From: Escherichia phage vB_EcoS_G29-2
Sequence record: NC_049822.1
Direction: 5' to 3' (one strand)
Length of the DNA: 51,739 nt
A program made the translations under genes and the position numbers. Numbering within the stretch: position 1 is the first letter of the stretch; each line of letters begins with the position of its first letter. The notes under the pieces are model-generated. The model did not search any database. It saw only the letters and a program-made list of their open reading frames with translations, and was not told where the DNA came from. Shown one piece after another: positions 5,467 through 51,739 of the stretch.

Positions 5467-5495
5467 CAAACACCAATCAACGAGAGGACTTGAAC

Positions 5496-6767: not shown

Positions 6768-6811
6768 TAGCACTTTTTGTTAAAACTTCCGCGAGGGCAT
6801 TTGTTAAAGTG
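6766..6811 (+). promoter_or_regulatory. conserved motif promoter (weak -10)
   Basis: motif present; -10 region TAAAGT less canonical. Confidence 0.4.
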
Positions 6812-6842
6812 TCCTCATTGAAGCGAAGCAGAGGAAAGCACA

Positions 6843-7100: not shown

Positions 7101-7330
7101 TCACGATTAACCTTTCAGAGAAGCAAGCATATCAAGTGATGAGCTACATTTCTGGATTTGGTATGGAAGTCGCTATGGGTGAAGTTGCGGATCAGATTTG
7201 CCGTCAACTTACACCAGCACCAACGCGAGCGGCAGAAACTGCCGCATGGCGTAACGAGGCAGGATACATTCAGAAGGCTATTGAATACTGGAAGCGCAAA
7301 AACGAGACTGCGGAGGATGCAGGATTATGA
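7097..7330 (+). CDS. hypothetical protein
   Basis: ATGA start/stop overlap with upstream gene. Confidence 0.5.
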   Translation: MITINLSEKQAYQVMSYISGFGMEVAMGEVADQICRQLTPAPTRAAETAAWRNEAGYIQKAIEYWKRKNETAEDAGL

Positions 7331-7572
7331 TTTACATTCACTACTACCAGATCGGGACAAACGAAAACAAGCAGGAGCGCAGAGCAATTTGTGACACGCT
7401 CGACGATGCGAAAGCACAGCAACGCGTTTTGGGTGGAGTAATTCAGGCTTTTGAGCCAGTGGAAGACATAGAGCACCGAGAGCATTTGAAAGAGATTGTT
7501 GTTGATGAAATTTCATCACTAATCGACGACATGACAAATCACGGGCCTGGTTCTCCGTGGGAAGAGGCCTGA
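7327..7572 (+). CDS. hypothetical protein
   Basis: ATGA overlap; 81 aa, acidic. Confidence 0.5.
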   Translation: MIYIHYYQIGTNENKQERRAICDTLDDAKAQQRVLGGVIQAFEPVEDIEHREHLKEIVVDEISSLIDDMTNHGPGSPWEEA

Positions 7573-7650
7573 TCGACGGAGTGGGATTGCGCTAAAGTTG
7601 CAACGCTTAACAACTTTCGTAAGTTGCTCGACGATTTTTAATTAAAATTG

Positions 7651-7698
7651 AATGCCTCATACAGCGAACAGGACGCATTTTGACGAGGCATTTTTTAG
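7651..7698 (+). terminator. rho-independent terminator
   Basis: stem ATGCCTC/GAGGCAT with T-run. Confidence 0.5.
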
Positions 7699-7711
7699 GT
7701 AAGGTGATTCA

Positions 7712-7840
7712 ATGGATAACTACATAAAACCGTCGCAGCGGTGCGCACAGAAGCAAGAGGAAGCATTAGAACGCGGCGATACTGAAACGGCAATGCACTA
7801 TTTCGAAATGTACAACTTGTGGAAGGGTAGAGGTCTGTAA
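7712..7840 (+). CDS. small hypothetical protein (42 aa)
   Basis: not in track; RBS AAGGTGA; follows terminator 7651-7698; TAATG overlap with next gene. Confidence 0.35.
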   Translation: MDNYIKPSQRCAQKQEEALERGDTETAMHYFEMYNLWKGRGL

Positions 7841-8070
7841 TGTTTGGAATGAACGAGGCACAATTCAACGCTGCAAAACGCCAGGCTAAGAAGTGCGGCG
7901 AGGCAATGAAAGCGGATGTTGAAAAGCGCGGAAAGTATGTTGATGAAGTTATGAAGGGCATTATTGCCGAACATTATCAGCCAGTTGCGCCAATGCTGAC
8001 AATTACCCAATTCATCTGGTTGTGTGGTTATCTTCGTGGGCGATGGGGAAACGCATTTGACCGCGAATGA
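7840..8070 (+). CDS. hypothetical protein
   Basis: 76-aa ORF. Confidence 0.5.
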   Translation: MFGMNEAQFNAAKRQAKKCGEAMKADVEKRGKYVDEVMKGIIAEHYQPVAPMLTITQFIWLCGYLRGRWGNAFDRE

Positions 8071-8216
8071 TTGACAACGATTTCCTGATTGGATAGCATA
8101 TCAATCGTTTACATAAGAGCGGCGTTAGTGCCGAACGGGTGGCGCGGTTGCCACGCAACAACGGCGATATGCAGGTTTTTACCGTAAGACGTATCGCCTT
8201 TTTTATAGGTGAATAT

Positions 8217-8450
8217 ATGGAAAAGTACAAATTAACTTTCATGTTTAATAGTATGGTGATGAATCCCTTAAATGGTTACGCTTGCAATAGCTTTTCTGTT
8301 ACCGTGAATGAGGATGAAATTGATGATGATGGCAAATTCATTCGAATTGGTGAATACTTGTACCCCGTGCACAATATCAATTGCATCAAACGCGAGATCG
8401 TAAAAGATGAAGTACAAGGTAAGGTTGACGATCAGGAGAATGGGGCGTAA
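8217..8450 (+). CDS. hypothetical protein
   Basis: start chosen downstream of terminator-like hairpin 8151-8208; track ORF 8139-8450 would span it. Confidence 0.4.
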   Translation: MEKYKLTFMFNSMVMNPLNGYACNSFSVTVNEDEIDDDGKFIRIGEYLYPVHNINCIKREIVKDEVQGKVDDQENGA

Positions 8451-8595
8451 TTGCTCGTCATGCAAACAAAGTTTTGAGTGTGAAGTTGAAGCGCGAGGAG
8501 AGCTTGAGGCGGCAGCAAAAGCAAAAGAGCTGTCCGGCGCTAATCAAGACACTCACCAGTTTTCAATAGATCTTGTAAGGAAGATACAATGTTAA
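8440..8595 (+). CDS. small Cys-containing hypothetical protein
   Basis: RBS AGGAGA before ATG 8440; alternative start 8407. Confidence 0.35.
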   Translation: MGRNCSSCKQSFECEVEARGELEAAAKAKELSGANQDTHQFSIDLVRKIQC

Positions 8596-8822
8596 ACTTA
8601 ATTTCTGCTTTTATTATTGGTTTTGTTTTTGCTGTAATTATTTTGCTTGTCGCATCGGAAAAAATTTGCAAATTTCTTTCTAAGAACGGTAAGTTTGCAA
8701 GCGTGACATGGAATAACAAGATGCAGCGATGGGATGTTCGCGGTCACTATCTGACGATTGGTAGCAAAATCCATCAGCACCTGAAGAATCAAGAAGATGA
8801 AAAAGTAAAATACAAGTATTGA
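8589..8822 (+). CDS. small membrane protein
   Basis: RBS AAGGAAG; N-terminal TM LISAFIIGFVFAVIILLVA; followed by terminator. Confidence 0.5.
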   Translation: MLNLISAFIIGFVFAVIILLVASEKICKFLSKNGKFASVTWNNKMQRWDVRGHYLTIGSKIHQHLKNQEDEKVKYKY

Positions 8823-14791: not shown

Positions 14792-15226
14792 ATGAGTGAT
14801 TATTCAGTCATTGTTGGCGCTGAGTCGCCAGGATGCATGGTTGATTCTTCAATAATGGTGATTAATGGTTCTTTTGTATGTGGAGACGAGTTTATTTCAC
14901 CAGGTAAGATTGTAAGGTTATCATATATATCAAGCGGATATAAAATAGTCAGTGTTAATGGTGATCTAGTTATTGGCGTGGCAGTAAGACCGCCGGACTC
15001 GTGCATATATGAGGAGGGTGATCCCGTTAATGTGGTTAGTAGAGGTAGTGTGTGGTGCTTAACTTCTGAGAGCGAAGCGCCAGAATATGGAGATAAAGTA
15101 TTTGTAACGCAAGATGGAGATGCGGCATACAGTGAAGGCGACTTGCTGAGCGGTTGGATCTTTACTGGCGAACATGTAAAGGTTGATCATGATTCATATA
15201 TTGTCGGGGTAAGCATTAGCGCATAA
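14792..15226 (+). CDS. head-associated hypothetical protein
   Basis: 144-aa ORF between head genes. Confidence 0.45.
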   Translation: MSDYSVIVGAESPGCMVDSSIMVINGSFVCGDEFISPGKIVRLSYISSGYKIVSVNGDLVIGVAVRPPDSCIYEEGDPVNVVSRGSVWCLTSESEAPEYGDKVFVTQDGDAAYSEGDLLSGWIFTGEHVKVDHDSYIVGVSISA

Positions 15227-15244
15227 CACAAAATTATGTTGCAC

Positions 15245-15266
15245 GTTTAACAAAAAATGCTATCAT
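15245..15266 (-). promoter_or_regulatory. motif copy in inverted orientation between head genes (function unclear)
   Basis: TTAACAAAAAATGCTAT on + strand; lacks the usual 19-bp spacing to a -10. Confidence 0.3.
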
Positions 15267-18968: not shown

Positions 18969-19003
18969 ACTGTACAATCATGCTACACGATTCATAATCA
19001 ATT

Positions 19004-19024
19004 CTTTTAACAAAAAGTGCTATC
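19004..19024 (-). promoter_or_regulatory. motif copy in inverted orientation upstream of chaperone gene (function unclear)
   Basis: CTTTTAACAAAAAGTGCTATC on + strand immediately before RBS of 19037. Confidence 0.3.
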
Positions 19025-38037: not shown

Positions 38038-38511
38038 TTAGCAATTAGTGCTTTCAGGTTTATACAGGAATCCGCCAGGTTCATAATCTGACATTCTTAC
38101 CACTCGCAACATTTCACGCTTATCACATCTCTTTGTGAGCGGTTTGCCATTGGAATCAAATCGCAGATCTGGACGGCAGAATGACGCGCGATAGCCTTGA
38201 CAACCATATTTCTTGTAATCGTTATGCACCTTTTGAGCGCCAGCGGCTGAAATCATACCGCGAACGCGCCACTGATTTACAGTTTGCTGGCTAACGTTAA
38301 GACGCTTTGCCATTGCTGACACGCTGCCGTAATACTCAATAAGAATGTCAAGCCGTGCTTTTAGTCCGGCGCGCACTTCATCTTTTAAAACATAGTATCC
38401 TGTAGGGCGCTTGCGCTTTTTCTTATCTTTACCCCGTCGAGTTCCGTTATTGCCATTAATTGTGCGCTTGTCAATCTTGCCTGTTGATACCGCGATTCGC
38501 TGCTCTTTCAT
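38038..38511 (-). CDS. HTH DNA-binding protein (putative regulator)
   Basis: helix-turn-helix SVSAMAKRLNVSQQTVNQWRVRG; basic K/R-rich N-terminus. Confidence 0.6.
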   Translation of the reverse strand: MKEQRIAVSTGKIDKRTINGNNGTRRGKDKKKRKRPTGYYVLKDEVRAGLKARLDILIEYYGSVSAMAKRLNVSQQTVNQWRVRGMISAAGAQKVHNDYKKYGCQGYRASFCRPDLRFDSNGKPLTKRCDKREMLRVVRMSDYEPGGFLYKPESTNC

Positions 38512-38523: not shown

Positions 38524-38569
38524 AATAGCATTTTTTGTTAAACGATGATTTAATGATTGTGTATTATAC
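38524..38569 (+). promoter_or_regulatory. conserved motif promoter for helicase operon (no spacer hairpin, -10 TATTAT)
   Basis: CAATAGCATTTTTTGTTAAAC then 19 bp then TATTAT. Confidence 0.5.
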
Positions 38570-40640
38570 ACTCCAAATGGCATTACTCAAAGGTTTTAGA
38601 ATGATTCCAAACATTGAAAAGCAAATATCAGCACTTGGTGAAGCGGTAATTAAATCCATTCAGGAGCGGTTCACTGTTGGCGATATTGTGCCTTACCCTT
38701 ACCAGTGCGTTGCATACGCTGAGATCGCAAAGCGTATGAAAAATTATGAGCATCCATTCTTTGTTAAAGCGTCGGTATCGGCTGGCAAAACATTGATGTT
38801 TGCAATGGTTGCTCACCAGTGCCGGAAAATGGGCTTAAAAATGATGGTTCTTGCTCGCCAAGCTGAGATTGTGGATCAAGATTCTGAAGAGATAACAAAT
38901 CTTGGCGTGCCGAACTCAATCTATTGCGCAGGGCTGAAGACAAAGAGCGCATACTTTCCGATCGTTGTTGGTTCTGAGGGAACTGTAGTTAATGGACTGT
39001 TTAAAGCGCTTGGCGACTATGTTCCGCACGTTATCGGGATTGACGAGTGTCACCAGGTGGATTGGGAAGACCTTGCCGACGCCATAGAGAAAGATGAGTC
39101 ATTTTTACAAATGACGACAAAGAAAGGCGAAAGAGTACCAAATCCAGATTATGACATAGAGAGCGATAACGAGTGCGAAGAGTTCCTGATTGGTGAGGAT
39201 GGCTTGCCAATGGAGGGAACAGGCCGCACACAATACACTGTCATTATCATGGAAATGATGCGACGTTGCAGGAAAGCATATGGCCATGAACTGCGCATAT
39301 TTGGCATGACTGGATCGGAGTTTCGCGGTGTAGTCCCAATACTGGTAGAAGATAAAAAGCAGAAAGGATTTTGGCGTGAACAGGTTACTAATATTGACAC
39401 CAACTACCTGATCAAGTTCGGTTCTGTTGTTCCGACTAATTTTGGCGACGTTGGCGATCTCGGGTATGACCTTTCAGAGTTTGAGGCATCAAGCGAGGAT
39501 GGCGTTGCAGACTTTGACGCTAAAACGCTTCGCAGGATGGAACAAAAAATTCATGAAGAAGCGACCATGACAAAGCGCATCATGGCGAAAGTGCACGAGA
39601 TCTGTAAAAACCGTAACGGTGTACTTGTGACATGTGCAGGCGAAAGGCACTGTAAAGAGGCGGCGGCAGCATTGCCGCCTGGAACGACTTACAGGATCAT
39701 TACTGGTAAGACTGGCGATAACCAGCGCAAGGAGTGGTTGAAAGAAGCATACGAGGGAAAGGTTAAATACATCTTCCAGGTGCAGGCGCTAACTACTGGC
39801 GTTAACGTGCCGTTTTGGGATACGTCTGTTATTCTGCGTAAGATTGGATCTCTTACGTTGCTGATTCAGCTTTTAGGGCGCGGAATGCGACTGCTTAAGA
39901 AATGGCATAAGGAGCAAGGATTCAAGAAAGATGATCATCTCGTCATGGATTTTTCAGGAACGATGGACGAGCTAGGGGAGCTTTATTTTGATCCGATACT
40001 GGAACAGGCGCAGCACCAGAAGCGATTCAGAAATGGTAAAGATCCGAAGCCTTGTCCTGTTTGCGGAACTCTTAACAGCTATTATGCTCGTCGTTGTATG
40101 CACGTAGACGAAAACGGCAACAGATGCGAGTGGTTCTTTAAATTCAGGACATGTGATGATCAGATTGACCCGCGCACTAAAAAGATTATTCATCGCGGTT
40201 GCGGAACGAAGAATGATATTGCGGCCAGGGTATGCAGACATTGCGACATGTCATTGATTGACCCTAACGAGAAGTTAAGCGGAAAGCACTACACAAAAAA
40301 CGACTGGTTTCAGGTGCAATCTTTCTCGGTTGACATGACGAAAAACCAGAAAGGGATAATATTTAATTATGAGCTTTCCGATGGCATAGACACTTTCAGG
40401 GCGAGAGAGATATTTTTCCCTGAATCTGAGAGCCAAATTTGCCGCGCAAAATGGCGAAGCGTTGCTCTTAAGCACATACCAGATCGCCGTGTTGCTGGCA
40501 TGGTGGCGAGCTATCGTAATGCACGTAAAATCATGCAATATGTGAATCACATCATGCCACCATCGCGTGTAACTCACCGCAAGACTAGCAAGGGTGAAGA
40601 TAATTTGTACAAGAAGGACTTTAATTATGGCAATGACTGA
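38535..40640 (+). CDS. ATP-dependent helicase (SF2, DEAH-type) with C-terminal zinc ribbons
   Basis: Walker A SAGKT, DEAH-like IGIDECHQV, C-terminal CPVCG...C...C clusters; start uncertain (38535 TTG, ATG 38578 or 38601). Confidence 0.75.
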   Translation: MLNDDLMIVYYTLQMALLKGFRMIPNIEKQISALGEAVIKSIQERFTVGDIVPYPYQCVAYAEIAKRMKNYEHPFFVKASVSAGKTLMFAMVAHQCRKMGLKMMVLARQAEIVDQDSEEITNLGVPNSIYCAGLKTKSAYFPIVVGSEGTVVNGLFKALGDYVPHVIGIDECHQVDWEDLADAIEKDESFLQMTTKKGERVPNPDYDIESDNECEEFLIGEDGLPMEGTGRTQYTVIIMEMMRRCRKAYGHELRIFGMTGSEFRGVVPILVEDKKQKGFWREQVTNIDTNYLIKFGSVVPTNFGDVGDLGYDLSEFEASSEDGVADFDAKTLRRMEQKIHEEATMTKRIMAKVHEICKNRNGVLVTCAGERHCKEAAAALPPGTTYRIITGKTGDNQRKEWLKEAYEGKVKYIFQVQALTTGVNVPFWDTSVILRKIGSLTLLIQLLGRGMRLLKKWHKEQGFKKDDHLVMDFSGTMDELGELYFDPILEQAQHQKRFRNGKDPKPCPVCGTLNSYYARRCMHVDENGNRCEWFFKFRTCDDQIDPRTKKIIHRGCGTKNDIAARVCRHCDMSLIDPNEKLSGKHYTKNDWFQVQSFSVDMTKNQKGIIFNYELSDGIDTFRAREIFFPESESQICRAKWRSVALKHIPDRRVAGMVASYRNARKIMQYVNHIMPPSRVTHRKTSKGEDNLYKKDFNYGND

Positions 40641-41046
40641 TAAAGGCGATTATCTGGAGTTTTACGAAAGAGATCCGACGGATACGCTAAAAGAGGAATC
40701 ACACCAGATCGGGGCGTTTCAATGGTTGACTTATGCTTACCCTGAATTGCTGGCATGGCATACGAAAAACGAGGGCGACAAGGGGATCGCCACCGCAATG
40801 ATGGATCAGCAAGCCGGACTCGTTAAGGGCGTAAGTGATTTTATCATCCTGATTGGATTAAAAGGCCGTTATCCGTTTGCAGCAATTGAGATGAAGCGCG
40901 TCAATAAGTCTGGAAAGGGTAAGGCTTCACCAGTCAGTAAGGAGCAAAAAGCCTTCTTACGACGTGTGCGCGAGCTTGGCGGATTCGCTGCCGTAACATA
41001 CGGATATAAGCAATTCATGATCGCTGTAGAATACATGATGAAATAG
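40627..41046 (+). CDS. VRR-NUC domain nuclease
   Basis: PD-(D/E)xK-like SDFIILIG...AIEMKR; start overlaps helicase stop. Confidence 0.6.
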   Translation: MAMTDKGDYLEFYERDPTDTLKEESHQIGAFQWLTYAYPELLAWHTKNEGDKGIATAMMDQQAGLVKGVSDFIILIGLKGRYPFAAIEMKRVNKSGKGKASPVSKEQKAFLRRVRELGGFAAVTYGYKQFMIAVEYMMK

Positions 41047-41088
41047 CACTTTTTGTTAAAACAGGCGCGAAGGATTGCGCCATAATAA
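41042..41088 (+). promoter_or_regulatory. conserved motif promoter (hairpin GGCGC/GCGCC, -10 CATAAT)
   Basis: motif then 19 bp then ATAATA. Confidence 0.55.
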
Positions 41089-41120
41089 CACCAGTTCAAC
41101 AAGCAACAGGTAATTAAGAA

Positions 41121-41822
41121 ATGATCAAAGAAACCGAAGTGACATTTGAACAAATCGAACGAGAAACATTCATTGGCAATGCTCTTGCTACCGGAGGCTA
41201 TTACCAGGCTGTTAAACCAAATCAATATTATAAAGTCACTGGCAACCGCTATAACGGCAGCAATACGCCGGACGTTGTGCGAGATTTGTGGTCTACGCCG
41301 TCTGAGCTTGTCGCATGGATGGAAATCGAATACGGTGATTATGACATCGACGCTGCGGCAAGCAAAGAAAATGCTGTATGTGAAAAATTCTACAGCAAGG
41401 AAACAAATTGCTTAAAGCGTTGGTGGGGTAGTAATAAGCATATCTGGCTGAATCCACCGTACAGCAATATAACGCCTTTCGTTAAGAAAGCGATTGAGCA
41501 AATGGAGCACAATAACCAGATCGACATTCTGTTACCTTGCGACACATCGACAGGATGGTTTTATGAGGCACAACAGAAAGCAGCGGAAATAATCTGGATC
41601 ACTGGCGAAGTTTACCAGGAGGAAGGAATAGAATATTCCAGAACTGGACGGCTTGCTTTCACTTCAGCGCTTACAGGTAAACCAGTGCAGGGAAACAACA
41701 AAGGAAGCGTTATTTTCATCATGCGCGAACTTAAAGAAGGTGAGCAGCAGAAAACTCGATACGTTAAGATCAGCGACATTTGCCCGTCAGTGGCAGAGCG
41801 TCGAGCAAGAAAGCGGAGTTAA
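41121..41822 (+). CDS. dam: DNA N6-adenine methyltransferase (phage Dam family)
   Basis: catalytic motif WLNPPYS (NPPY); size typical of phage Dam. Confidence 0.75.
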   Translation: MIKETEVTFEQIERETFIGNALATGGYYQAVKPNQYYKVTGNRYNGSNTPDVVRDLWSTPSELVAWMEIEYGDYDIDAAASKENAVCEKFYSKETNCLKRWWGSNKHIWLNPPYSNITPFVKKAIEQMEHNNQIDILLPCDTSTGWFYEAQQKAAEIIWITGEVYQEEGIEYSRTGRLAFTSALTGKPVQGNNKGSVIFIMRELKEGEQQKTRYVKISDICPSVAERRARKRS

Positions 41823-41826
41823 TATC

Positions 41827-42066
41827 ATGCAGAAAGAAAGAAGCGTTTATTTAAATGAAACTGGAGAGTGGTTGTTATTTCGCGCTATGGTTTGCGAGGC
41901 GCTTGATAAAAACGAGTTCATAAAACCGCTATTAGGTTGTGATCCGTGGGAGTTTACAAGCGCGCTTGATATGAGCTTTGAGGAAACAAGAAAACTACCG
42001 CTTGAAAAATGGCATGAGCAGATCGGTAAAGACTTGCAAGAGTTTTACGAATCCGCGACAAAATAG
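41827..42066 (+). CDS. hypothetical protein
   Basis: RBS GGAG; stop in motif copy at 42062. Confidence 0.45.
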   Translation: MQKERSVYLNETGEWLLFRAMVCEALDKNEFIKPLLGCDPWEFTSALDMSFEETRKLPLEKWHEQIGKDLQEFYESATK

Positions 42067-42107
42067 CACTTTTTGTTAAAAAGCCCGGCCCTGTGTCGGG
42101 CATAATT
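42062..42107 (+). promoter_or_regulatory. conserved motif promoter (hairpin GCCCG/CGGGC, -10 CATAAT)
   Basis: motif then 19 bp then ATAATT. Confidence 0.55.
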
Positions 42108-42138
42108 ATTTCATCAAAACGAACAAGAGGAAAACAAA

Positions 42139-42318
42139 ATGGTTGTTTACGATCCACGCGCTTTTAAAATTGCTCAAGAAGTTTCACGCGAATCTGTTGC
42201 TGGCGGTTCGGTTAACGGCTATCAGTTTGATTGGTCGGCAGCAATGACCTTGCTTAAGGTTGCATATGGTCACGCGCCAATTGAAACAGCGGAGGCATAT
42301 TATAAGCATGAAGGTTGA
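42139..42318 (+). CDS. small hypothetical protein (59 aa)
   Basis: not in track; RBS AAGAGGAAAA downstream of motif promoter. Confidence 0.4.
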   Translation: MVVYDPRAFKIAQEVSRESVAGGSVNGYQFDWSAAMTLLKVAYGHAPIETAEAYYKHEG

Positions 42319-42550
42319 ACAAGGTAGGCAGGCTGTATGGGATCACGCAAAGGAATGTGGGATCTCTGAAGACATAGCCAGGATAGCAAAATATTTTGAT
42401 ATTGCTGACATAAGCATTATAAGCGGCGACAAAATGACTTTTCTCAATGAACGCCCGCGCAAGATGCATCGCGTCCCAGCAATACCAACAAAGATTGATT
42501 TCAAAGAGGCTATGGCGAAAATTCGCGAGCCGCGCAAATACTACAAATGA
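42308..42550 (+). CDS. hypothetical protein
   Basis: ATG with GGAGG upstream, overlaps previous ORF. Confidence 0.4.
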   Translation: MKVEQGRQAVWDHAKECGISEDIARIAKYFDIADISIISGDKMTFLNERPRKMHRVPAIPTKIDFKEAMAKIREPRKYYK

Positions 42551-44616: not shown

Positions 44617-45015
44617 ATGCGAAAGTTATCAATAATCGCTATCGCTGTTATTTTGTCTGGATGTTCAAGCGTTACGCCACTGACCGGATTAATCGGTAGT
44701 AAGCCGGAAATCACAGCACAGGCAGGAGCGGAGAACGTAAAGCAGACCGTTGGCGTTACCGCAAAGCAGGACACCAGCACAAAACAGGAAACTACAATAA
44801 AGGAATCTGCGGTTGATAAGGTGGACACTTCCAGCAAGAAGGATTTCACTACGTCAACCATTCAGGCCAATACCATCAAGGCTGATAAAATCCAGGTTGT
44901 GCAGGGTGAGCAAAGGAAGTGGTACGATCCCATAATCTATTGCGCTGCAATTTTTAGCGGTCTTTTGTCAATGCTTTACTTTTCCTACCGCAAAGGCAAC
45001 AAAAAGGAGGCTTAA
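44617..45015 (+). CDS. unimolecular spanin (lipoprotein with C-terminal TM)
   Basis: lipobox LSG-C plus C-terminal TM IIYCAAIFSGLLSMLYF; arrangement as in T1 gp11. Confidence 0.7.
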   Translation: MRKLSIIAIAVILSGCSSVTPLTGLIGSKPEITAQAGAENVKQTVGVTAKQDTSTKQETTIKESAVDKVDTSSKKDFTTSTIQANTIKADKIQVVQGEQRKWYDPIIYCAAIFSGLLSMLYFSYRKGNKKEA

Positions 45016-45030
45016 CGCCTCCTTTGTTTT
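45004..45030. terminator. bidirectional terminator at convergence of lysis cassette and leftward block
   Basis: AGGAGGC-TTAA-CGCCTCCT + TTGTTTT. Confidence 0.7.
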
Positions 45031-45250
45031 ATAGTGCATCCATCAAATCTTGAAAGCTGTTTCCGCTATAATCATTCTCGACAAGAATGTAAGCACCTTT
45101 CTTCTTTATATCCCATAACATTTCATTGTATTCGTAACGATTTATTTCAAACGTGCTGCCATCTTCTCTTGTCGCAGTTCCTTTGTCGTTGAAAACATCA
45201 AAAGTTACATTGATGATTTTTGTCTCTTTCTTTGTTACTTTGATAGCCAT
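45029..45250 (-). CDS. hypothetical protein
   Basis: RBS GAGGA; downstream of minus-strand motif promoter 45283-45328. Confidence 0.5.
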   Translation of the reverse strand: MAIKVTKKETKIINVTFDVFNDKGTATREDGSTFEINRYEYNEMLWDIKKKGAYILVENDYSGNSFQDLMDAL

Positions 45251-45282
45251 TTTTAAAATCCTCATATTCGTTCCGATGAAAC

Positions 45283-45328
45283 AAATATACCCGATACGAG
45301 ATCGGGAGTTTTAACAAAAAGTGCTATT
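45283..45328 (-). promoter_or_regulatory. conserved motif promoter (hairpin CCCGAT/ATCGGG, -10 ATATTT)
   Basis: minus-strand motif then 19 bp. Confidence 0.5.
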
Positions 45329-45518
45329 CGATACGCTTTACAGTAACCAACAAAACGCCGTCCTCATCACACAAATTATGCTCTGATATGTTAAACGCTC
45401 GCATGTCAGAATGAATTAGCGTTAACATTGCGTGCATGAAGTCTTCATGTGAGATTGAACTTACGGCGCAGAACTTCAATATTTTGTCTATTAGCATTTG
45501 ACGTAAACAGTTCTTCAT
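45324..45518 (-). CDS. small hypothetical protein (start uncertain)
   Basis: stop TAG embedded in motif copy; overlaps upstream gene unless started at internal ATG 45437. Confidence 0.3.
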   Translation of the reverse strand: MKNCLRQMLIDKILKFCAVSSISHEDFMHAMLTLIHSDMRAFNISEHNLCDEDGVLLVTVKRIE

Positions 45519-45837
45519 CGCTCATTTCTCCGATCCGTAAAACATCCCTAACCCATTCGTTTTGCATACCTTCCAGGCTGTAAAGTTCAAACGAGAAAGG
45601 GCGATTTGCGGATCCTTTCTTACACCAGAACTTTCCACCAACTCCATCAAGATAACCAGCGGTCATCATTCTTGCGCAAAACTCTTTTGAAACGGCAGTA
45701 GCAAACATTCTCTGCGTAAATCCTGCGGCCCTTGCGAGCCGCTCACATTCTCTATGCTGAAAGATAAATTTTGCTATATGTTGACGCGTAAACCATTCGA
45801 ATGACTCACACCAGCGATACAGATCCAGAAGAAACAT
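45445..45837 (-). CDS. hypothetical protein
   Basis: 130 aa, start coupled (TAATTATG) to stop of upstream gene. Confidence 0.55.
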   Translation of the reverse strand: MFLLDLYRWCESFEWFTRQHIAKFIFQHRECERLARAAGFTQRMFATAVSKEFCARMMTAGYLDGVGGKFWCKKGSANRPFSFELYSLEGMQNEWVRDVLRIGEMSDEELFTSNANRQNIEVLRRKFNLT

Positions 45838-45839
45838 AA

Positions 45840-47423
45840 TTACCCCAGCAATGTTGGATTTACAAAAACAACGCCATTAATCACACAAATATAATTTCTT
45901 TCTTCAAGCATCGGCAGCAGTTGCGTTTCCATACGCTTCATTACGCCAGCCTGGCCAACAAACGGCTTAACTTTTCGTGCAGCCTCATATATGGCGCGAA
46001 CATTCAAGATCCCCTTGTTAGCCTTACCGTGTCGAGTGATAATCTCGATTAGTTTACCCATTTCAGCATCATCACCAGCATAGCCAGAAGCGTTGGCGGC
46101 GCTAATGTATGTTTTGCTCAACTCGCTAAACATCAGCAGTGCTTCTTGAACGGTTTCAACTTCAATCTCTTTCGACTTCTGAGGGTATCCACCAGGATTA
46201 AACCAGTTGCGGATAGTGTGCAAAACCGAAGCAATCCTGATCACCTGCTTATCCATTTTGCCAAGAGCACCGCGCAGCATTGTATGCGAATACTTTCCGC
46301 CATCAGCAAGGTGCGGCTCCATCTCCTGACGAGCTATGTTAAGAACTCGCATTGCTGATTTGCTGATCTTAAGCTGGATGTTTGATTCACTCATGATGTT
46401 ATGGATCAGCTTAAAATATTGACTTTTCAGTTCTCCATCAACAGGCTCATAAGTAGAATCACCGTTATCATCAACAAACTTTCGACGACCTAAAAATGAT
46501 TCCTCACGCACAAGCAAATAACGCTCACTCACACCGATACCGCGCGATCCTGCATCCATGATGGCATTGATTGTTTCATCCTGGGCAATCACCGCCATAC
46601 AGCCAAGAGCTTTAAAACTCATATTGTTGTCAGCGTTTGCACGAGCTATAGAAACATGACCATGATCCCATGCTTTCAGCACAAGTTCGCTGTTGGTTTT
46701 ACGTTCGCTATTAGCATATGTCAGACCTAAAAGGCTGTTAATACTCGTTGCCTCGTCTGAAATCACAGCAAAGTTACCCTGGCGATTGTTGATTCTTGCA
46801 AGTCCTTCCGGCGTGGTGTCGGACACAGGGAAAACAATGTCACACATCTTTTCCAGTTTTTCTTCCAGATCTTCTTTCTCCTGGTACAGAGATTCCATAT
46901 CAGCGCCGGAGCGCTCGCTTTTCATCTCTTTTGCAAGACCTGCCAACTTTGCCTGAATCTTTTTTCTTTCCTTCTTTCGCTGATCGTTAATTCTTTCCAC
47001 TTCTGCAACCATTGGAGCAAGTGCCAGGCTGTTAACGGCAGATTTACCAGTTGAAGGAGGCTGGCTTGTGACAACATAAAGAGCGGTCGGCTGATCCGTT
47101 CCGTGATACTCAACCGTGAAGCGTCCAAGCATTGCAGCAGACACGCAGCCGATAAAATGCATATATGCCGATGATTCAGGGAACTGAACTGAGCGAGCAA
47201 TGTTGCGCGCCAACTTACCAACAACATCAACATCATTGCCAAGAGAAATTACAGGGTAGCGATCATTTCCGTTATTAACATCATTAACCTCACCCCAAAA
47301 GCTGGACGATTGACGGTATCCGTTTGCCTGAATGGACACGCGCACCGGAGACAATCCTTGTGCATCAGCTAATTCGATAATTTGTTTTGGTGTTAGTTTG
47401 TTGGTTTCAAACGAAAAATTCAT
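45840..47423 (-). CDS. P-loop NTPase-containing protein (putative replication-associated)
   Basis: 527 aa from RBS-supported ATG (GGAG); Walker A-like SQPPSTGKSA. Confidence 0.6.
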   Translation of the reverse strand: MNFSFETNKLTPKQIIELADAQGLSPVRVSIQANGYRQSSSFWGEVNDVNNGNDRYPVISLGNDVDVVGKLARNIARSVQFPESSAYMHFIGCVSAAMLGRFTVEYHGTDQPTALYVVTSQPPSTGKSAVNSLALAPMVAEVERINDQRKKERKKIQAKLAGLAKEMKSERSGADMESLYQEKEDLEEKLEKMCDIVFPVSDTTPEGLARINNRQGNFAVISDEATSINSLLGLTYANSERKTNSELVLKAWDHGHVSIARANADNNMSFKALGCMAVIAQDETINAIMDAGSRGIGVSERYLLVREESFLGRRKFVDDNGDSTYEPVDGELKSQYFKLIHNIMSESNIQLKISKSAMRVLNIARQEMEPHLADGGKYSHTMLRGALGKMDKQVIRIASVLHTIRNWFNPGGYPQKSKEIEVETVQEALLMFSELSKTYISAANASGYAGDDAEMGKLIEIITRHGKANKGILNVRAIYEAARKVKPFVGQAGVMKRMETQLLPMLEERNYICVINGVVFVNPTLLG

Positions 47424-47452
47424 TGATGATAACTCCTTTTTTTGATGCGGCA

Positions 47453-47497
47453 ATAATACCGCACCAATGCTACCCGCATTTAACAAAAAATGCTATT
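47453..47497 (-). promoter_or_regulatory. conserved motif promoter (variant, -10 TATTAT in hairpin loop)
   Basis: AATAGCATTTTTTGTTAAAT then 19 bp then TATTAT. Confidence 0.5.
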
Positions 47498-47714
47498 TGA
47501 TCCGCTCTATGCTAACTAAGATTTTTTCTGGTTCCCTTGCGCTATGGCAATGCGCGGTTACGGAGTCAGCAAAATCAAAATAAAGTGATTTGTGGTAAGA
47601 AAGACCAATCAGCCATCCAACCATCGTTTTCTTTATTGGCCTGACTATATCGCCAGGCTTGAAGGTTTTTGTTGCTGAATGAGTCACCTTATAGCGATAT
47701 TCAGCCTTGATCAC
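47493..47714 (-). CDS. hypothetical protein (GTG start)
   Basis: GTGA overlap with upstream stop; stop embedded in motif copy. Confidence 0.45.
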   Translation of the reverse strand: MIKAEYRYKVTHSATKTFKPGDIVRPIKKTMVGWLIGLSYHKSLYFDFADSVTAHCHSAREPEKILVSIERIK

Positions 47715-48097
47715 TTATACATAGCCTCAAATAAATGACAGCCACCAGCGGAAAATCCTACTTCTTCGCGATATAGCGTCCAGCGGTCGCCAGCTTCATC
47801 AAAAACATAACCAGCAACAGCACCAAGCGCGCGCCCTTGCTCAATCTGGTAGCGCTTTCCTTCTTTGAAATGCTTTTTGCACGGGATCTTGTGATCTACA
47901 AATGTGCATTTAATTGTTTTTGTCTTGATATGACGATAGTCAGACTCAACAGCGTTTTTCCACTTGCTACCCTTTGTAATGCTCTTTACCTGGAATTGTT
48001 CCAACTCGATCACATCATCGCTACCAGCAATTTTTTCGTATACAGCTTTATAACGACCGTTCATCAAAACGTTGGTTTTATTGCAGATAACTTTCAT
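47711..48097 (-). CDS. hypothetical protein
   Basis: 128 aa, RBS GGAGAAA, leader CACCGAAACGAAAGGAGA. Confidence 0.55.
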   Translation of the reverse strand: MKVICNKTNVLMNGRYKAVYEKIAGSDDVIELEQFQVKSITKGSKWKNAVESDYRHIKTKTIKCTFVDHKIPCKKHFKEGKRYQIEQGRALGAVAGYVFDEAGDRWTLYREEVGFSAGGCHLFEAMYK

Positions 48098-48128
48098 CGT
48101 TTATTTCTCCTTTCGTTTCGGTGAAGTG

Positions 48129-48173
48129 ATTATGCCAGGCTTTTACACCTGGCTTTTAACAAAAAGTGCTATT
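48129..48173 (-). promoter_or_regulatory. conserved motif promoter (hairpin GCCAGG/CCTGGC, -10 CATAAT)
   Basis: minus-strand motif; same hairpin sequence as copy at 1254. Confidence 0.55.
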
Positions 48174-48879
48174 TTGCGTTTGCTTCAAAGACGGCGCGAG
48201 CAAAACCGCGCGGTGTGAGGGAGCGGATCATCTTTGTGCGAGACGATTTTCCGCCAGTTTTGGCCCAACCAGGATTATCCTTGTCGCCATCTTTAGGAAT
48301 GATTGTTGCGCGCGGAGGAATAACAAATCCGTTTCCAGTCCAAAGGCATGTTTTCTTAAAGTACCGATCCCGTGCCGGAATAATATCAGGAAAGTCGGGA
48401 TGTTTATCATCTTCCGGCAGATAGCCAGCATAATCGCACGGATGGAACGTATAATCAGGCTTGCGCCATAGCGTTGACAGCTTGCCTACAGGATTCTCTA
48501 TCATGTACGGAACACCGAAATAATCAGCAATTTGCGCCGCTATTTTGCAAGTGTCGGCGGCTTCATCCTGGAACGATGGATTCTCAATGCGTTTTTTAGC
48601 CCAATGGCGAGATCCGCTATTTGCAAGGTCAGTGCATGGAGGGAACGCCATAATAAAATCAGGCTTACCCCAATTTTCAAGTTTTGCGGTATATTTGAAT
48701 AGATCATCAATCCACGCGTTAACGTAAAAGATATTGTCATGGATTATGCGCACTGAGTGGTAATCACCGTGATCAGCATCATCGTAATTAAAGCAAATGC
48801 ATTTATATCCAGCATCAGCCCAATCTTTAACGGCTTTACCGGATCCATCAAACAAAGAGAAAATTAAACCCTTATACAT
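48169..48879 (-). CDS. putative DNA (cytosine-5) methyltransferase, compact
   Basis: motif I-like LFDGSG, motif IV-like FPPC, motif VI-like ENPVG; RBS GAGGTGA. Confidence 0.5.
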   Translation of the reverse strand: MYKGLIFSLFDGSGKAVKDWADAGYKCICFNYDDADHGDYHSVRIIHDNIFYVNAWIDDLFKYTAKLENWGKPDFIMAFPPCTDLANSGSRHWAKKRIENPSFQDEAADTCKIAAQIADYFGVPYMIENPVGKLSTLWRKPDYTFHPCDYAGYLPEDDKHPDFPDIIPARDRYFKKTCLWTGNGFVIPPRATIIPKDGDKDNPGWAKTGGKSSRTKMIRSLTPRGFARAVFEANAK

Positions 48880-48888
48880 TTCATCACC

Positions 48889-49113
48889 TCAAAACGGAAA
48901 GCATCGCGGACAGTTAGGATCAAAATTGCAGCCGCAATCATTAACAATCATCGTTGGATCTGCAAATGCAGCACCGCATTCATGTTCCATATCCATTTCA
49001 CCCAACGCATCATCAAGTGTCCTGATCTTATATGCAACTTCAAGAGCAGCCTCTTTATTCAGCCCAGCATCTTCCGCTTTTTGCAGTCGCTCAAAAAATC
49101 CGTCCTGGCTCAT
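48889..49113 (-). CDS. hypothetical protein with C-terminal Cys cluster
   Basis: CGCNFDPNCPRC at C-terminus. Confidence 0.5.
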   Translation of the reverse strand: MSQDGFFERLQKAEDAGLNKEAALEVAYKIRTLDDALGEMDMEHECGAAFADPTMIVNDCGCNFDPNCPRCFPF

Positions 49114-49223
49114 TTCATAAGCTCCTTGATAACAATCAGAATAGTAGCAATAACAGCAGTGACAACTAAAAGACCAGCAAGGCTCATCATCACACCAAAT
49201 AAAATATCAAGAAATTTCGTCAT
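49110..49223 (-). CDS. small hydrophobic peptide (37 aa)
   Basis: not in track; RBS AGGTGA; single TM MTKFLDILFGVMMSLAGLLVVTAVIATILIVI. Confidence 0.3.
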   Translation of the reverse strand: MTKFLDILFGVMMSLAGLLVVTAVIATILIVIKELMK

Positions 49224-49240
49224 TATTATCACCTTTATTT

Positions 49241-49265
49241 AAAGGGAGGCGAAACCTCCCGTTTA
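49241..49265 (-). terminator. rho-independent terminator
   Basis: minus-strand GGGAGG-TTTCGC-CTCCC + TTTAAAT. Confidence 0.55.
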
Positions 49266-49269
49266 TTAA

Positions 49270-49497
49270 TTAGATAGCCTTCCAACTTTCAATGAACATG
49301 CTGTTCTCTTCAAGAAGTTTAATCAATTCTTCGCGCGTATATTTGCGGATTTTACTACCTGGATGCGAGCCAACAACAAACACACCTTTACCGCTCGTGA
49401 TTGTTAACTGGTTGATTCCGCAAGATTTATCCATCTTAATGGCGACGCGGTGATGTGCATCAACAGTGTGCATGATGTTAGTGATTTTGGCTTTCAT
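49270..49497 (-). CDS. hypothetical protein
   Basis: 75 aa, terminator hairpin after stop. Confidence 0.5.
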   Translation of the reverse strand: MKAKITNIMHTVDAHHRVAIKMDKSCGINQLTITSGKGVFVVGSHPGSKIRKYTREELIKLLEENSMFIESWKAI

Positions 49498-49671
49498 TAT
49501 GCAATCCTCATTATATTTGGTGTGGTAACTATATCAGGTTTGAGAAATATTGTTTAGCAATTTGTGCTATCAGTTGAAATAGCTATGGCGATTTGCTCGC
49601 TTTCCGTCTCCGCCATAATGATCATTAGAAACGGGAATCATCCAGGAATTATGAAATATTATTAGTCTCAT

Positions 49672-49953
49672 CTAATTAATGCCAACAACGTTAAAACTTA
49701 CAGCTTTTGTTGCGCTAAACACATACGCTTCAACAGCCTCACCAAATACACGAATTTTTCCCTGGCCGTACTGCGCATTCATATTGCGCCAAACCGTCCT
49801 GTTAGAACAGAACGCGCTACCAGTCTTGATAAGATTATCCATCTCTTTCCTTAGATCATGATAATCAAGCCAGAATCTATAAGCGCGTTGTTTAATGAGT
49901 TGTGCCTTGATTGTTTCAGTTGAGTTTTTAAAATCGCTGTTTGTGTAGGCCAT
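49672..49953 (-). CDS. hypothetical protein
   Basis: RBS GGAGG; TAATG coupling with upstream gene. Confidence 0.5.
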   Translation of the reverse strand: MAYTNSDFKNSTETIKAQLIKQRAYRFWLDYHDLRKEMDNLIKTGSAFCSNRTVWRNMNAQYGQGKIRVFGEAVEAYVFSATKAVSFNVVGIN

Positions 49954-50147
49954 TACACAACCTCCATAAAAGTATTGAATCCACGCAGTTTGAAAGCATT
50001 GCCATGTTTAACAACGTTCCATGTCAGGCCGGAGTGATACGCAACCATATCCTCAAGATCAATGGTGATGATAGCGCCTTTCTTAAAGATTCCTTTCTCG
50101 TGAGTGGTGTCACGCTGTACAACTTTAACATCAACTTGATTTTCCAT
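49953..50147 (-). CDS. hypothetical protein
   Basis: RBS GAGGA and conserved leader downstream of motif promoter 50178-50223. Confidence 0.5.
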   Translation of the reverse strand: MENQVDVKVVQRDTTHEKGIFKKGAIITIDLEDMVAYHSGLTWNVVKHGNAFKLRGFNTFMEVV

Positions 50148-50177
50148 CTTTAAATCCTCGTTCGTTGTCGATGGATG

Positions 50178-50223
50178 TAATATACCATTCAGGCGCATAC
50201 CGTTTTTAACAAAAAGTGCTATT
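50178..50223 (-). promoter_or_regulatory. conserved motif promoter (-10 ATATTA)
   Basis: motif then 18-19 bp then ATATTA; followed by conserved leader. Confidence 0.5.
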
Positions 50224-50509
50224 CAACAACAGATCCAGTTAAAGAGATAAGTGCCCTTGTGATCTTGTGTCTGCGATACTGACGCGCAACAACCGGAAGA
50301 TTTTCACCGCTTTGATGACCGAAGCAGATCGGCAACTCACCCTCAAGAGAGCGGAAGCCGCCAAACTCAAGATCACGCACAGGCTTTGAGCGCCACGCTT
50401 CAATAAATCCGCGTTCGTCACGCGTGATATAGCGGTATATGTTCGGGAGGGGCAATTGTATCCCCTCAAAATCCACTGTATCGGTATAGCTGTAAAACTT
50501 AGAACTCAT
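50219..50509 (-). CDS. hypothetical protein
   Basis: RBS GGAG; stop in motif copy. Confidence 0.5.
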   Translation of the reverse strand: MSSKFYSYTDTVDFEGIQLPLPNIYRYITRDERGFIEAWRSKPVRDLEFGGFRSLEGELPICFGHQSGENLPVVARQYRRHKITRALISLTGSVVE

Positions 50510-50651
50510 AGTCAACAACTCCAAATTCGTTAACAATTTGCGCCTTATAGAATCCGCCATTTTTCGCCAGGTTATAACATGCCGCTACAGTTTCAAATTC
50601 GCGCACTTCCGGCTGGCTGTTTTCGTGTTCCCAGGTAATCAGAGTAACCAT
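50499..50651 (-). CDS. small hypothetical protein (50 aa)
   Basis: not in track; RBS GAGGA and conserved leader after motif promoter 50685-50729. Confidence 0.4.
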   Translation of the reverse strand: MVTLITWEHENSQPEVREFETVAACYNLAKNGGFYKAQIVNEFGVVDYEF

Positions 50652-50684
50652 TTTCAAATCCTCGCATTCGTTATCGATGTGTGT

Positions 50685-50729
50685 AATGTACAGGAATACG
50701 AGGATTGAGTTTTAACAAAAAGTGCTATT
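50685..50729 (-). promoter_or_regulatory. conserved motif promoter (-10 TACATT)
   Basis: motif then 18 bp then TACATT; followed by conserved leader. Confidence 0.5.
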
Positions 50730-50995
50730 TAGTCCAGGAATTCGATTTCGCGCTCGCCAGTTAACGGATCTTTAATCCAGAATCCTAGCGCCTCACCGTA
50801 AATACCGCCATAGAATCCAAGCGCCGACAGATCCTCACCTTTAACAAATACCAGATCCCCGCTACGGCTTACGTGAGATACGTTAACGATAACCGGAAAG
50901 GTGCGATCCTTAAATGCAGGCCGCAGGGCGTAACACCCGTTATTGAGCAAACGTGCTTTGCGCTTAACTGGAATAGGTGCATTGATTCGCGCCAT
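50729..50995 (-). CDS. hypothetical protein
   Basis: RBS AAGGAGA; stop in motif copy. Confidence 0.5.
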   Translation of the reverse strand: MARINAPIPVKRKARLLNNGCYALRPAFKDRTFPVIVNVSHVSRSGDLVFVKGEDLSALGFYGGIYGEALGFWIKDPLTGEREIEFLD

Positions 50996-51008
50996 CTTTA
51001 TTTCTCCT

Positions 51009-51254
51009 TCATTGTTGATCGTGTTTAACTGCCATCAGAATATCACAGGACTCGTTAATAAATTTTGCCATGCGCTTATCATCACCATCAGGGATTAGCG
51101 CGTTAAACTCGCGTTTGCTACTGAACACAGTCACTTTATGGAATGATGCGAACGGCATCGACGGGAACTCGACTGTTTGCGTCAAGATCCGCAAACCCAT
51201 CTTTTTGGCCCTTACCTGGGCCTCGGCAAGTTCAAAATCCACTTCACTAATCAT
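51009..51254 (-). CDS. hypothetical protein
   Basis: ATGA coupling to upstream gene. Confidence 0.45.
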   Translation of the reverse strand: MISEVDFELAEAQVRAKKMGLRILTQTVEFPSMPFASFHKVTVFSSKREFNALIPDGDDKRMAKFINESCDILMAVKHDQQ

Positions 51255-51523
51255 TTCTTGATCTCCTCGGCAATAAACTTCAGGACTTTGCGCAAAAAAA
51301 CTTCGTTGTTGATGGTTGCTGGCAATTCCTCTTTCACTTCTTGCGGCAGATAGATATTGTCGTGCCAGGTTAAGCAATCGTAATTGATACGATAAGAGCA
51401 AAGCCACTCGCAATCGTTATCCGCTTCCCAAATGCAGAGTTGCAGAACATCGCCAAAATCCTCAACAGTCAGATCCAGACCGTGACGCTTTGCAAAGTTG
51501 AAAGTGGTTTTGCTGATGTTCAT
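51251..51523 (-). CDS. hypothetical protein (first gene of leftward operon)
   Basis: RBS CAGGAGA, downstream of motif promoter 51561-51605. Confidence 0.55.
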   Translation of the reverse strand: MNISKTTFNFAKRHGLDLTVEDFGDVLQLCIWEADNDCEWLCSYRINYDCLTWHDNIYLPQEVKEELPATINNEVFLRKVLKFIAEEIKK

Positions 51524-51560
51524 TGCTATCTCCTGATGGGTATCTCGTTTCGATGTGTCT

Positions 51561-51605
51561 AATGTACCCGATCAGGGCAATTCAGTTTTAACAAAAAGTG
51601 CTATT
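51561..51605 (-). promoter_or_regulatory. conserved motif promoter (-10 TACATT)
   Basis: motif then 18 bp then TACATT; drives leftward operon from 51523. Confidence 0.5.
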
Positions 51606-51618
51606 TGCTTACTGGTTA

Positions 51619-51658
51619 TTATTCCACCTATTCCATTAATCAGGAATAACAGGAATAA
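51619..51658. repeat. imperfect palindrome TTATTCCACCTATTCC ..8 bp.. GGAATAACAGGAATAA
   Basis: 16-bp arms, 13/16 complementary, upstream of leftward operon promoter. Confidence 0.5.
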
Positions 51659-51739
51659 ATCATTCGCGATCACCTGGATTGTGAGACTTTGAGTTTGATC
51701 AATTTTAATCAAGTGATTAACTTTTTGTGTGGAGGGGAT

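Follow-up and report, generated by a model that had tools for sequence, protein, structure and literature searches.

The window analysed here is the full 51,739-nt stretch of Escherichia phage vB_EcoS_G29-2 (NC_049822.1), and all coordinates are window positions. The phage is a T1-like coliphage, a virulent siphovirus of the Drexlerviridae (Tempevirinae, Hanrivervirus), and its gene layout was obtained by mapping the genes of Escherichia phage herni onto the window. Small early genes form a rightward arm (520-8600), and the structural genes (8900-29360) are followed by cor on the minus strand and then by a recombination module. There is also a minus-strand block with tail fibre, primase, and regulator genes, and a plus-strand group with helicase, nuclease, Dam methyltransferase, and lysis genes. 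The leftward block, in which a recurring 20-mer motif was studied, occupies 45029-51739 on the minus strand; the record is cut within its first gene, which resumes at window position 1. Between 45000 and 51739 the window is 99.5% identical to herni and 94-96% identical to pSf-1, PGN590, and JakobBernoulli, all of which are Hanrivervirus. Seven copies of the motif split the block (45.0-51.7 kb) into units of one to three genes, and the copies look like promoter elements that carry the consensus binding site (marbox) of the host activators MarA, SoxS, and Rob.

The original prediction listed six minus-strand copies of the motif in this block, read them as promoters, and placed a -10-like element 18-19 bp downstream of each. 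The six copies are real: TTTTAACAAAAAGTGCTATT is found on the plus strand, with the motif reading on the minus strand, at 45309-45328, 47478-47497, 48154-48173, 50204-50223, 50710-50729, and 51586-51605. The coordinates first given were off by only 1-2 nt, and the copy at 47478-47497 has 2 mismatches. All six are followed after exactly 19 bp on the minus strand by a -10-like hexamer (TATATT, TATTAT, CATAAT, TATATT, TACATT, and TACATT, in order from 45309 to 51586). A seventh copy within the same span had been missed. It is the variant GATAGCACAAATTGCTAAAC at 49552-49571 (minus strand), followed after 18 bp by TATAGT and located 5' of a 75-amino-acid gene (49270-49497). When the whole window was searched with TTTTAACAAAAAGTGCTATT at up to 3 mismatches, 17 matches were found against 0.02 expected, and none of 100 shuffles reached 17. 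Including variants, the genome contains 21 copies of the motif.

The motif is part of a larger unit, which consists of the 20-mer, a spacer of 18-19 bp of unrelated sequence, a -10-like hexamer, a purine at +1, a Shine-Dalgarno sequence (SD), and an ATG. The purine, usually an A in a CA context, lies 7 nt past the hexamer and is the predicted transcription start. The start codon follows 55-63 nt after the motif, and most copies have their first base 75-83 nt before the ATG. A G at -14, before the -10 hexamer, is frequent (1.2 bits). We pooled 75 motif sites from five genomes (the window, T1, and phages KP36, AAM37, and C130_2), and the spacing to the -10 was 18-19 bp at 63 of them, with a sharp peak at 19 bp. 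The best -10 score came with a 19-bp spacer in 69% of the sites and with an 18-bp spacer in 11%, while the mean score at every other offset was negative. When equivalent sites in T1 and the window are compared, motif and -10 are kept and the spacer has fully diverged, and thus the two conserved parts look like a two-part promoter footprint.

These promoters are not ordinary sigma-70 promoters, and they have no usable -35. A scan of 44900-51739 for sigma-70 -35/-10 pairs gave 14 candidates against 14.9 expected, which is the chance level, and called only one of the seven motif promoters. The TTGTTA within the motif lies 22-23 bp from the -10 and is therefore too far away to be used as a -35. 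On these sequence features it is very probable that the motif copies are promoters. The original prediction had preferred this reading to a replication or packaging repeat, and that preference is supported by the fixed -10 spacing, the purine at +1, the SD and start codon, the gene-consistent orientation, and the conservation of motif and -10 relative to T1. It had also claimed that each copy contains the stop codon of the preceding minus-strand gene. This holds at 47478, 48154, 50204, and 50710, where the TAG or TAA of an annotated upstream gene is within or abuts the first 5 nt (AATAG); at 45309 it applies only to a 64-amino-acid open reading frame (ORF) unannotated in herni (45324-45518, minus strand), whose TAG is inside the motif, and at 51586 it fails, since the upstream gene ends 14 nt beyond the motif. 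A last claim, that strand use is consistent, was correct for 19 of the 21 copies genome-wide, each of which faces a downstream gene arranged as an SD and start unit, but the copies at 15245 and 19005 oppose late genes. No sense-oriented copy is present in the 20-kb structural module or in the lysis genes, and thus the motif marks the non-structural (early/middle) genes.

The element itself has been published. The repeat was reportedly already noted in the T1 genome paper of 2004. The 2024 paper on phage TLS describes 18 intergenic 21-nt direct repeats with the consensus aaATAGCACnnnTTGnTAAAA and lists their function as an open question (PMC11447400). According to that text, the repeats point along transcription about 76 nt before start codons, similar repeats are present in T1, Rtp, and Rogue1, and a stoperator, an enhancer, or an UP element was suggested as their function (PMC11447400). 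The window motif agrees with the TLS repeat in consensus, orientation, and distance to the start, aaATAGCACnnnTTGnTAAAA has the same conservation pattern as the window and T1 sites, and the T, A, and G subgroups of the repeat are all found in the window (TTT, AAA/TAA, and GAA). They are the same element, and therefore the observation is a rediscovery, while the promoter reading goes somewhat beyond the published text. The accessible part of the paper reports neither the fixed -10 spacing nor a marbox identity (PMC11447400).

The consensus marbox of MarA, SoxS, and Rob is GCAHWWWWTGYYAAA, with GCAC as its A site and YAAA as its B site (PMC6900184). The motif core GCACTTTTTGTTAAA fits GCAHWWWWTGYYAAA at 15 of 15 positions. 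Perfect 15-mer marbox matches number 17 in the window against 0.15 expected, including all seven copies between 45 and 51.7 kb, and a search with the consensus GCAHWWWWTGYYAAA also recovers the divergent copies at 31180, 38036, and 49552. If transcription is assumed to start 7 nt past the hexamer, GCAC lies at -47 to -44 and the centre of the box near -41. When 40 sites of the window and T1 are aligned, A-T-A-GCAC and TG-Y-T-AAA are the information-rich parts and the three bases between them (TTT, GAA, AAA, or TAA) carry little, with the top columns being G-47, C-46, and G-38 at 2.0 bits each. The low and high columns coincide with the unrecognised and recognised positions of the marbox. The canonical flank A-Y-n is seen as A-T-A in the phage; n is free, and its A is accounted for by T-A-G, which also serves as a stop codon.

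The same arrangement is found at chromosomal promoters. Read directly from E. coli K-12, micF has ACAGCACTGAATGTCAAAAC, 18 bp, and TAGAAT, with the annotated +1 eight bases further, and E. coli sodA has ACGGCATTGATAATCATTTT, 18 bp, and TATAAT. In the same canonical frame the usual phage unit is ATAGCACTTTTTGTTAAAAC, 18 bp (17 bp in a minority), and a TATAAT-like hexamer. The phage site is identical to the micF site at 15 of 20 positions, all five differences are at degenerate positions, and orientation and spacing are the same; the micF box is also the one used for the cryo-electron microscopy complexes of Rob, SoxS, and RamA. According to published work, a class II marbox promoter has a forward marbox overlapping the -35, the micF box lies at about -41.5, and Rob contacts G-47 and A-45. 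Published structures have Rob and SoxS keeping sigma region 4 off the -35 while contacting the alpha C-terminal domain. The phage units have a consensus site in forward orientation (GCAC distal and AAA proximal), the -10 distance of this class, and a weak or absent -35. Like micF and sodA, they have a 20-bp asymmetric site with GCAC and YAAA elements and an A/T-rich stretch between them, placed forward over a poor -35. They differ in number and quality, with about 20 nearly all consensus-perfect sites in a 50-kb virulent genome, whereas chromosomal marboxes are degenerate. Other differences are the 5' flank that doubles as the upstream stop codon, the GC-rich hairpins between box and +1, and a conserved initial sequence, CATCGAAACGA. 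No paper that ties the T1-like repeat to the marbox was found in the searchable literature, and the identification of the repeat as a putative consensus class II marbox is the new content of this work.

From the sequence match, its orientation and spacing, the missing -35, conservation, and gene context, we infer protein binding, activator dependence, and transcription start sites. The motif copies would be the activator sites of about 20 class II activator-dependent sigma-70 promoters, which would drive early and middle genes for host takeover, replication, recombination, and DNA methylation. The 20-mer would be a consensus marbox and the target of MarA, SoxS, and Rob (RamA in Klebsiella), which are monomeric activators with two helix-turn-helix motifs. 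Bound near -41, the activator would stand in for the missing -35 contact and hold RNA polymerase by its alpha C-terminal domain and by region 4 of sigma-70, the arrangement solved for micF, and sigma region 2 would read the TATAAT-like -10. We give a probability of roughly one half to the reading that these are early/middle promoters of class II that depend on host MarA, SoxS, or Rob, or on RamA in Klebsiella.

In the leftward block, the predicted promoters can be followed along the minus strand from its first genes. The promoter at 51554-51605 has its motif at 51586-51605 (marbox core 51587-51601), a 19-bp spacer, the -10 TACATT at 51561-51566, and a predicted +1 at A 51554; its predicted targets are 51523-51251, 51254-51009, and 50995-50729. 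The next one (50678-50729) has the motif at 50710-50729, whose base 1 is overlapped by the TAA of the upstream gene, the -10 TACATT at 50685-50690, and a predicted +1 at 50678 followed by CATCGATAACGA, and its predicted targets are 50651-50499 and 50509-50219. The promoter at 50172-50223 (motif 50204-50223, with the TAG of the upstream gene inside it; -10 TATATT at 50179-50184; predicted +1 50172) is predicted to serve 50147-49953 and 49953-49672. The variant GATAGCACAAATTGCTAAAC belongs to a unit at 49521-49571, with a perfect 15-mer marbox at 49553-49567, the -10 TATAGT at 49528-49533, and a predicted +1 at 49521; its predicted target is the 75-amino-acid gene (49497-49270), with a hairpin terminator (49244-49260) after its end. 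Just 3' of this terminator there is a 40-amino-acid ORF unannotated in herni (49110-49232, minus strand).

The remaining three promoters of the block all contain hairpins. At 48122-48173 the motif (48154-48173) has the stop codon of the Dcm-type methyltransferase gene inside it, the spacer contains the hairpin GCCAGG..CCTGGC (-13.9 kcal/mol), the -10 is CATAAT (48129-48134), and from the predicted +1 at 48122 the targets would be 48097-47711 and 47714-47493. At 47446-47497 the motif is AATAGCATTTTTTGTTAAAT (47478-47497), the -10 TATTAT (47453-47458) is enclosed by a hairpin (-13.3 kcal/mol), and from the predicted +1 at 47446 the targets would be the helicase gene (47423-45840) and the genes after it. 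At 45277-45328 the motif (45309-45328) is followed by the spacer hairpin CCCGAT..ATCGGG, the -10 TATATT (45284-45289), and a predicted +1 at 45277 with CATCGGAACGA after it; the predicted target, 45250-45029, ends at a convergent terminator (45003-45025).

Elsewhere in the genome, the rightward early arm (1254-6817, plus strand) has six copies with motif starts at 1254, 1718, 2765, 4063, 5421, and 6766, each with an 18-19 bp spacer, a -10, and an SD and ATG. One copy (29641-29691, minus strand; motif 29672-29691, -10 TATAGT) lies 5' of the cor superinfection-exclusion gene (29616-29389). The variant AACAGCACAAATAGCTAAAC (31180-31230, plus strand) starts on the last base of the ExoVIII stop codon, has the -10 TATAAT, and is predicted to serve 31262-31540 and erf. 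The GAAAGCACTAATTGCTAAAA copy (38004-38055, minus strand) overlaps the 3' end of the Cro-like regulator gene, and its predicted target is the primase gene; its -10, TATCAT, is in a hairpin followed by seven T. Three plus-strand copies (38524-42113) start at 38524 (helicase), 41042 (Dam methyltransferase), and 42062 (a small gene at 42139). The two opposing copies are both on the minus strand. One (15216-15264; motif 15245-15264) has a weak -10 at 16 bp and is in the gap upstream of the major head gene, and the other (18973-19024; motif 19005-19024) has TAGCAT at 19 bp and lies in the gap that separates the major tail and tail chaperone genes. Both have T1 counterparts at equivalent positions (15068 and 18832, minus strand), and in the structural region of KP36 no motif copy was found at up to 1 mismatch. 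The opposing copies at 15245 and 19005 might be antisense promoters or roadblocks.

At about half of the promoters the predicted +1 starts a conserved initial transcribed sequence, CATCGAAACGA (also CATCGACAACGA or CATCGATAACGA), for example at 1304-1314, 42112-42122, 45268-45278, 48113-48123, and 51545-51555. The predicted start A is often followed by TCGAAACGA or a close variant. As a genome-wide motif CATCGAAACGA was rejected, since at up to 2 mismatches it is not enriched (21 against 17.7 expected) and only its near-exact copies are located at predicted +1 positions. The rightward arm also contains a near-consensus sigma-70 promoter (TTGACA-17-AATAAT, 455-483, plus strand), which lies ahead of the first two rightward genes and of the first motif copy (1254). 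The first of these genes encodes a DUF7174 protein (gp32, 520-1005). The annotation of KP36 has the same order of promoter, two genes, and first motif copy. The promoter at 455-483 is probably immediate-early and used by unaided host polymerase.

GC-rich inverted repeats are present between the motif and the predicted +1 at about 14 of the 21 copies (e.g. 45277-45308, 47446-47477, and 48122-48153). Over the 33 nt from motif to +1 the mean minimum free energy (MFE) is -9.0 kcal/mol, compared with -3.7 for shuffles (z = -12.8) and -3.5 for random genome windows (z = -8.9). Some stems are confined to the spacer and stop at -13, others surround the -10 and stop at -1, and none reaches the promoter's own transcript. 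Relative to phage SECphi27 there is a compensatory change from CCCGAT/ATCGGG to CCCGAC/GTCGGG, one stem is swapped for another (GCGG..CCGC to GGCCGT..ACGGCC), and some promoters gain or lose a stem. In the records of T1 and KP36, several stems carry an annotation as rho-independent terminators. The primase promoter (38004-38055) has its -10 within the stem and a run of seven T after it, so that a promoter and a true terminator overlap there. Most simply, the hairpins would act on the read-through RNA of the upstream unit, by termination or 3'-end protection, and they may have been squeezed into promoter positions that are free of sequence constraint.

The motif is not restricted to the window. 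T1 (Tunavirinae) has 22 sites and Klebsiella phage KP36 (Webervirus) has 16 against 1.2 expected, with the same architecture. Nine sites (0.7 expected) are found in Escherichia phage C130_2 (Hungariovirus), whose virion genes are P22-like. In the Pantoea myovirus vB_PagM_AAM37 (Dibbivirus) there are 6 against 1.0 expected, and at five of these a hairpin spacer of 19 bp precedes TATTAT or TAATAT. The Klebsiella T4-like Slopekvirus vB_KpnM_05F (Straboviridae) has cassettes at 7459-7560 and 8091-8175, in adjacent gaps by the DNA ligase gene; one has a normal 19-bp spacer and the other a 30-bp spacer containing a terminator. One Slopekvirus copy includes the downstream CATCGAAACGAA. C130_2 and AAM37 have a T1-like replication/recombination module in common with the window, and therefore the cassette travels with the module and has not arisen by convergence. 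Independent convergence in unrelated phages was rejected, since N5822, Klebsiella phage 13, and 12397IV proved to be Drexlerviridae and C130_2 and AAM37 share the module. Shared module ancestry explains most of the spread.

A phage-encoded activator similar to MarA was sought in the window. Profile and single-sequence searches with MarA, SoxS, and RamA over all 900 six-frame segments, with filters off, gave no AraC/MarA-like ORF (best E = 0.6), and this candidate was rejected. The annotated transcriptional regulator at 38038-38511 (minus strand) was rejected as an AraC-type protein, since it is Cro/YdaS-like and absent from the motif-bearing C130_2. The model of gp32 has a winged-helix-like domain and long helices and gave no match to an AraC-type fold. 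Homologues of the Cro-like regulator and of gp32 are both absent from C130_2, which nevertheless has 9 motif copies, and the two proteins are therefore disfavoured as a required factor. AAM37 and its relatives encode a stand-alone 136-amino-acid AraC-family protein (AAM37 36758-37168; HTH_18, 1.8e-14; HTH_AraC), which is 29% identical to MarA over its full length and confined to the genus Dibbivirus. The stop codon of its gene is where a perfect motif copy begins. When tblastn was run with this protein, no Drexlerviridae record gave a homologue. Its recognition helix has other residues than that of MarA; it was therefore rejected as proof of a marbox link and is a hint only. Since the window encodes no MarA-like protein, one or more host proteins are most likely the activator.

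Several points weigh against a dependence on the host activators. T1-like phages grow very well in ordinary laboratory cultures, and classical selections for T1 resistance give fhuA and tonB mutants and are not known to give mar, sox, or rob mutants, although redundancy of the three activators could hide the latter. Position 19 of the classical 20-mer consensus is Y, and it is A in most phage copies. The good -10 and the frequent G at -14 could give substantial activity without an activator. One of the T4-like copies has the 30-bp spacer. Two small conserved proteins (homologues of 41827-42066 and 42308-42550) are common to the window, C130_2, and AAM37, and therefore a phage-encoded binder could be travelling with the cassette. 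Finally, MarA and SoxS are scarce and Rob is reportedly largely sequestered in unstressed E. coli (PMC2787020).

The two small proteins shared by the window, C130_2, and AAM37 and the AAM37 AraC-family protein, with the perfect motif copy at its gene's stop, are also what a different explanation would build on, in which the activator is a phage protein without detectable similarity to MarA that is made from one or more sigma-70 promoters and switches on a delayed-early or middle class, like MotA of T4. The promoter at 455-483 precedes the first motif copy, in KP36 as in the window, and many early proteins are of unknown function. However, the fit to the host marbox in sequence, variable positions, orientation, and spacing would then have to be coincidence or mimicry. 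The search for an AraC-type ORF in the window was negative, the AAM37 protein has neither a Drexlerviridae homologue by tblastn nor the recognition-helix residues of MarA, C130_2 keeps 9 copies without gp32 or the Cro-like regulator, and the cassette is also found in a T4-like genome, so that a phage activator of this kind seems unlikely. The proposed promoters do resemble the T4 middle promoters (MotA and AsiA) in being a -35-less phage class with a box upstream of a good -10 and an activator that replaces the contact of sigma region 4. MotA recognises a different, 9-bp box with its centre at -30, about 12 bp before the -10, and the phage proteins MotA and AsiA are needed there. The window box has its centre near -41, 18-19 bp separate its end from the -10, and its sequence is that of a host activator site. 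The window promoters are therefore unlike MotA-dependent promoters in both sequence and spacing. It is distinctly unlikely that host RNA polymerase works alone, with the motif as an unusual upstream or UP-like element that offsets the missing -35. The good -10s, the frequent G at -14 (1.2 bits), and a T-tract and A-tract at -43 to -32 would suit this explanation, as would the four unrelated phage backgrounds in which the cassette works or at least persists; the TLS authors proposed that the repeat resembles UP elements (PMC11447400). On the other side, the best-conserved bases are the GCAC core and TG and not the A/T tracts, the motif is out of register with the UP consensus (compared by eye), TTGTTA at 22-23 bp from the -10 is too far for a -35, and a near-invariant asymmetric 20-bp site exceeds what the alpha C-terminal domain needs. 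An UP element would be A/T-rich, at -59 to -38, and free of invariant G or C, while the motif has G-47, C-46, and G-38 at 2.0 bits.

A further explanation gives the motif a negative role, either as a stoperator-like site at which a repressor (for example the Cro-like regulator) would bind or as part of terminator units that insulate genes; the -10s would then be secondary. Stable hairpins follow most copies (MFE -9.0 against -3.7 for shuffles), several are annotated as rho-independent terminators in the T1 and KP36 records, and one copy abuts the regulator gene. The motif is also like the L5 stoperators in having many asymmetric copies, in one orientation to transcription, in short intergenic regions (PMC11447400). 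However, most hairpins have no U-tract, and they shift between relatives while the motif and the -10 do not. The L5 sites serve the repressor of a temperate phage, stop elongation, and lie in no set relation to a -10. A stoperator needs neither the fixed 18-19 bp to the -10 nor the fixed 55-63 nt to the start codon that are found in the window, C130_2 has the motif without a homologue of the regulator, and the phage family is virulent (PMC11447400). A negative element is very unlikely. Least probable is an element without a role in transcription, which might instead serve recombination, mark module boundaries, or be a repeat for replication or packaging. The copies are at gene boundaries in a highly mosaic region, where identity between herni and the window shifts gene by gene, and the cassette is found in different phage families. 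Against this, orientation is gene-consistent, distances to the -10 and the start codon are fixed, and the 20-kb structural module has no copy in sense orientation.

The marbox match offers a testable answer to the published open question on the function of the repeat, and it bears on how T1-like phages time transcription. No transcription-start data for any Drexlerviridae were found in the literature. T1 is a founding model phage, its relatives are common laboratory contaminants, and they are candidates for therapy against E. coli, Klebsiella, Shigella, and Salmonella. It is possible, as a tentative proposal, that T1-like phages and other enterobacterial phages with the same early/replication module wired their whole early/middle programme to host MarA, SoxS, Rob, or RamA. 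Bile salts, salicylate, oxidative stress, or mar mutations would then tune phage development. Since there are about 20 consensus marboxes per genome, replicating phage DNA would soak up these regulators, and such titration could shut down host efflux, porin, and stress responses during infection. Lytic growth would then be tied to clinical multidrug-resistance regulators, which would bear on the combination of phages with antibiotics and on phage behaviour in the gut. The phage units would also be a set of compact, consensus-strength MarA-responsive promoters.

A few further features were observed. A Dcm site (CCAGG or CCTGG) abuts the -10 at four promoters (1293-1298, 1757-1762, 2798-2808, and 48129-48139), and a gene for a Dcm-type methyltransferase is present in the phage itself (48169-48879). 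An AT-rich stretch (160-340) with TATATA runs and GTGG/GGTG repeats lies in the gap from which the leftward and the rightward arm diverge; it contains neither a motif copy nor a gene, and it could be a candidate origin or pac-related region. A search of the window against Rfam gave no match. MG065687 ('Campylobacter phage A136', marked UNVERIFIED) and about 20 similar records labelled Campylobacter jejuni are Hanrivervirus sequences that are 88-92% identical to this coliphage, and their host label is probably wrong or derived from contamination.

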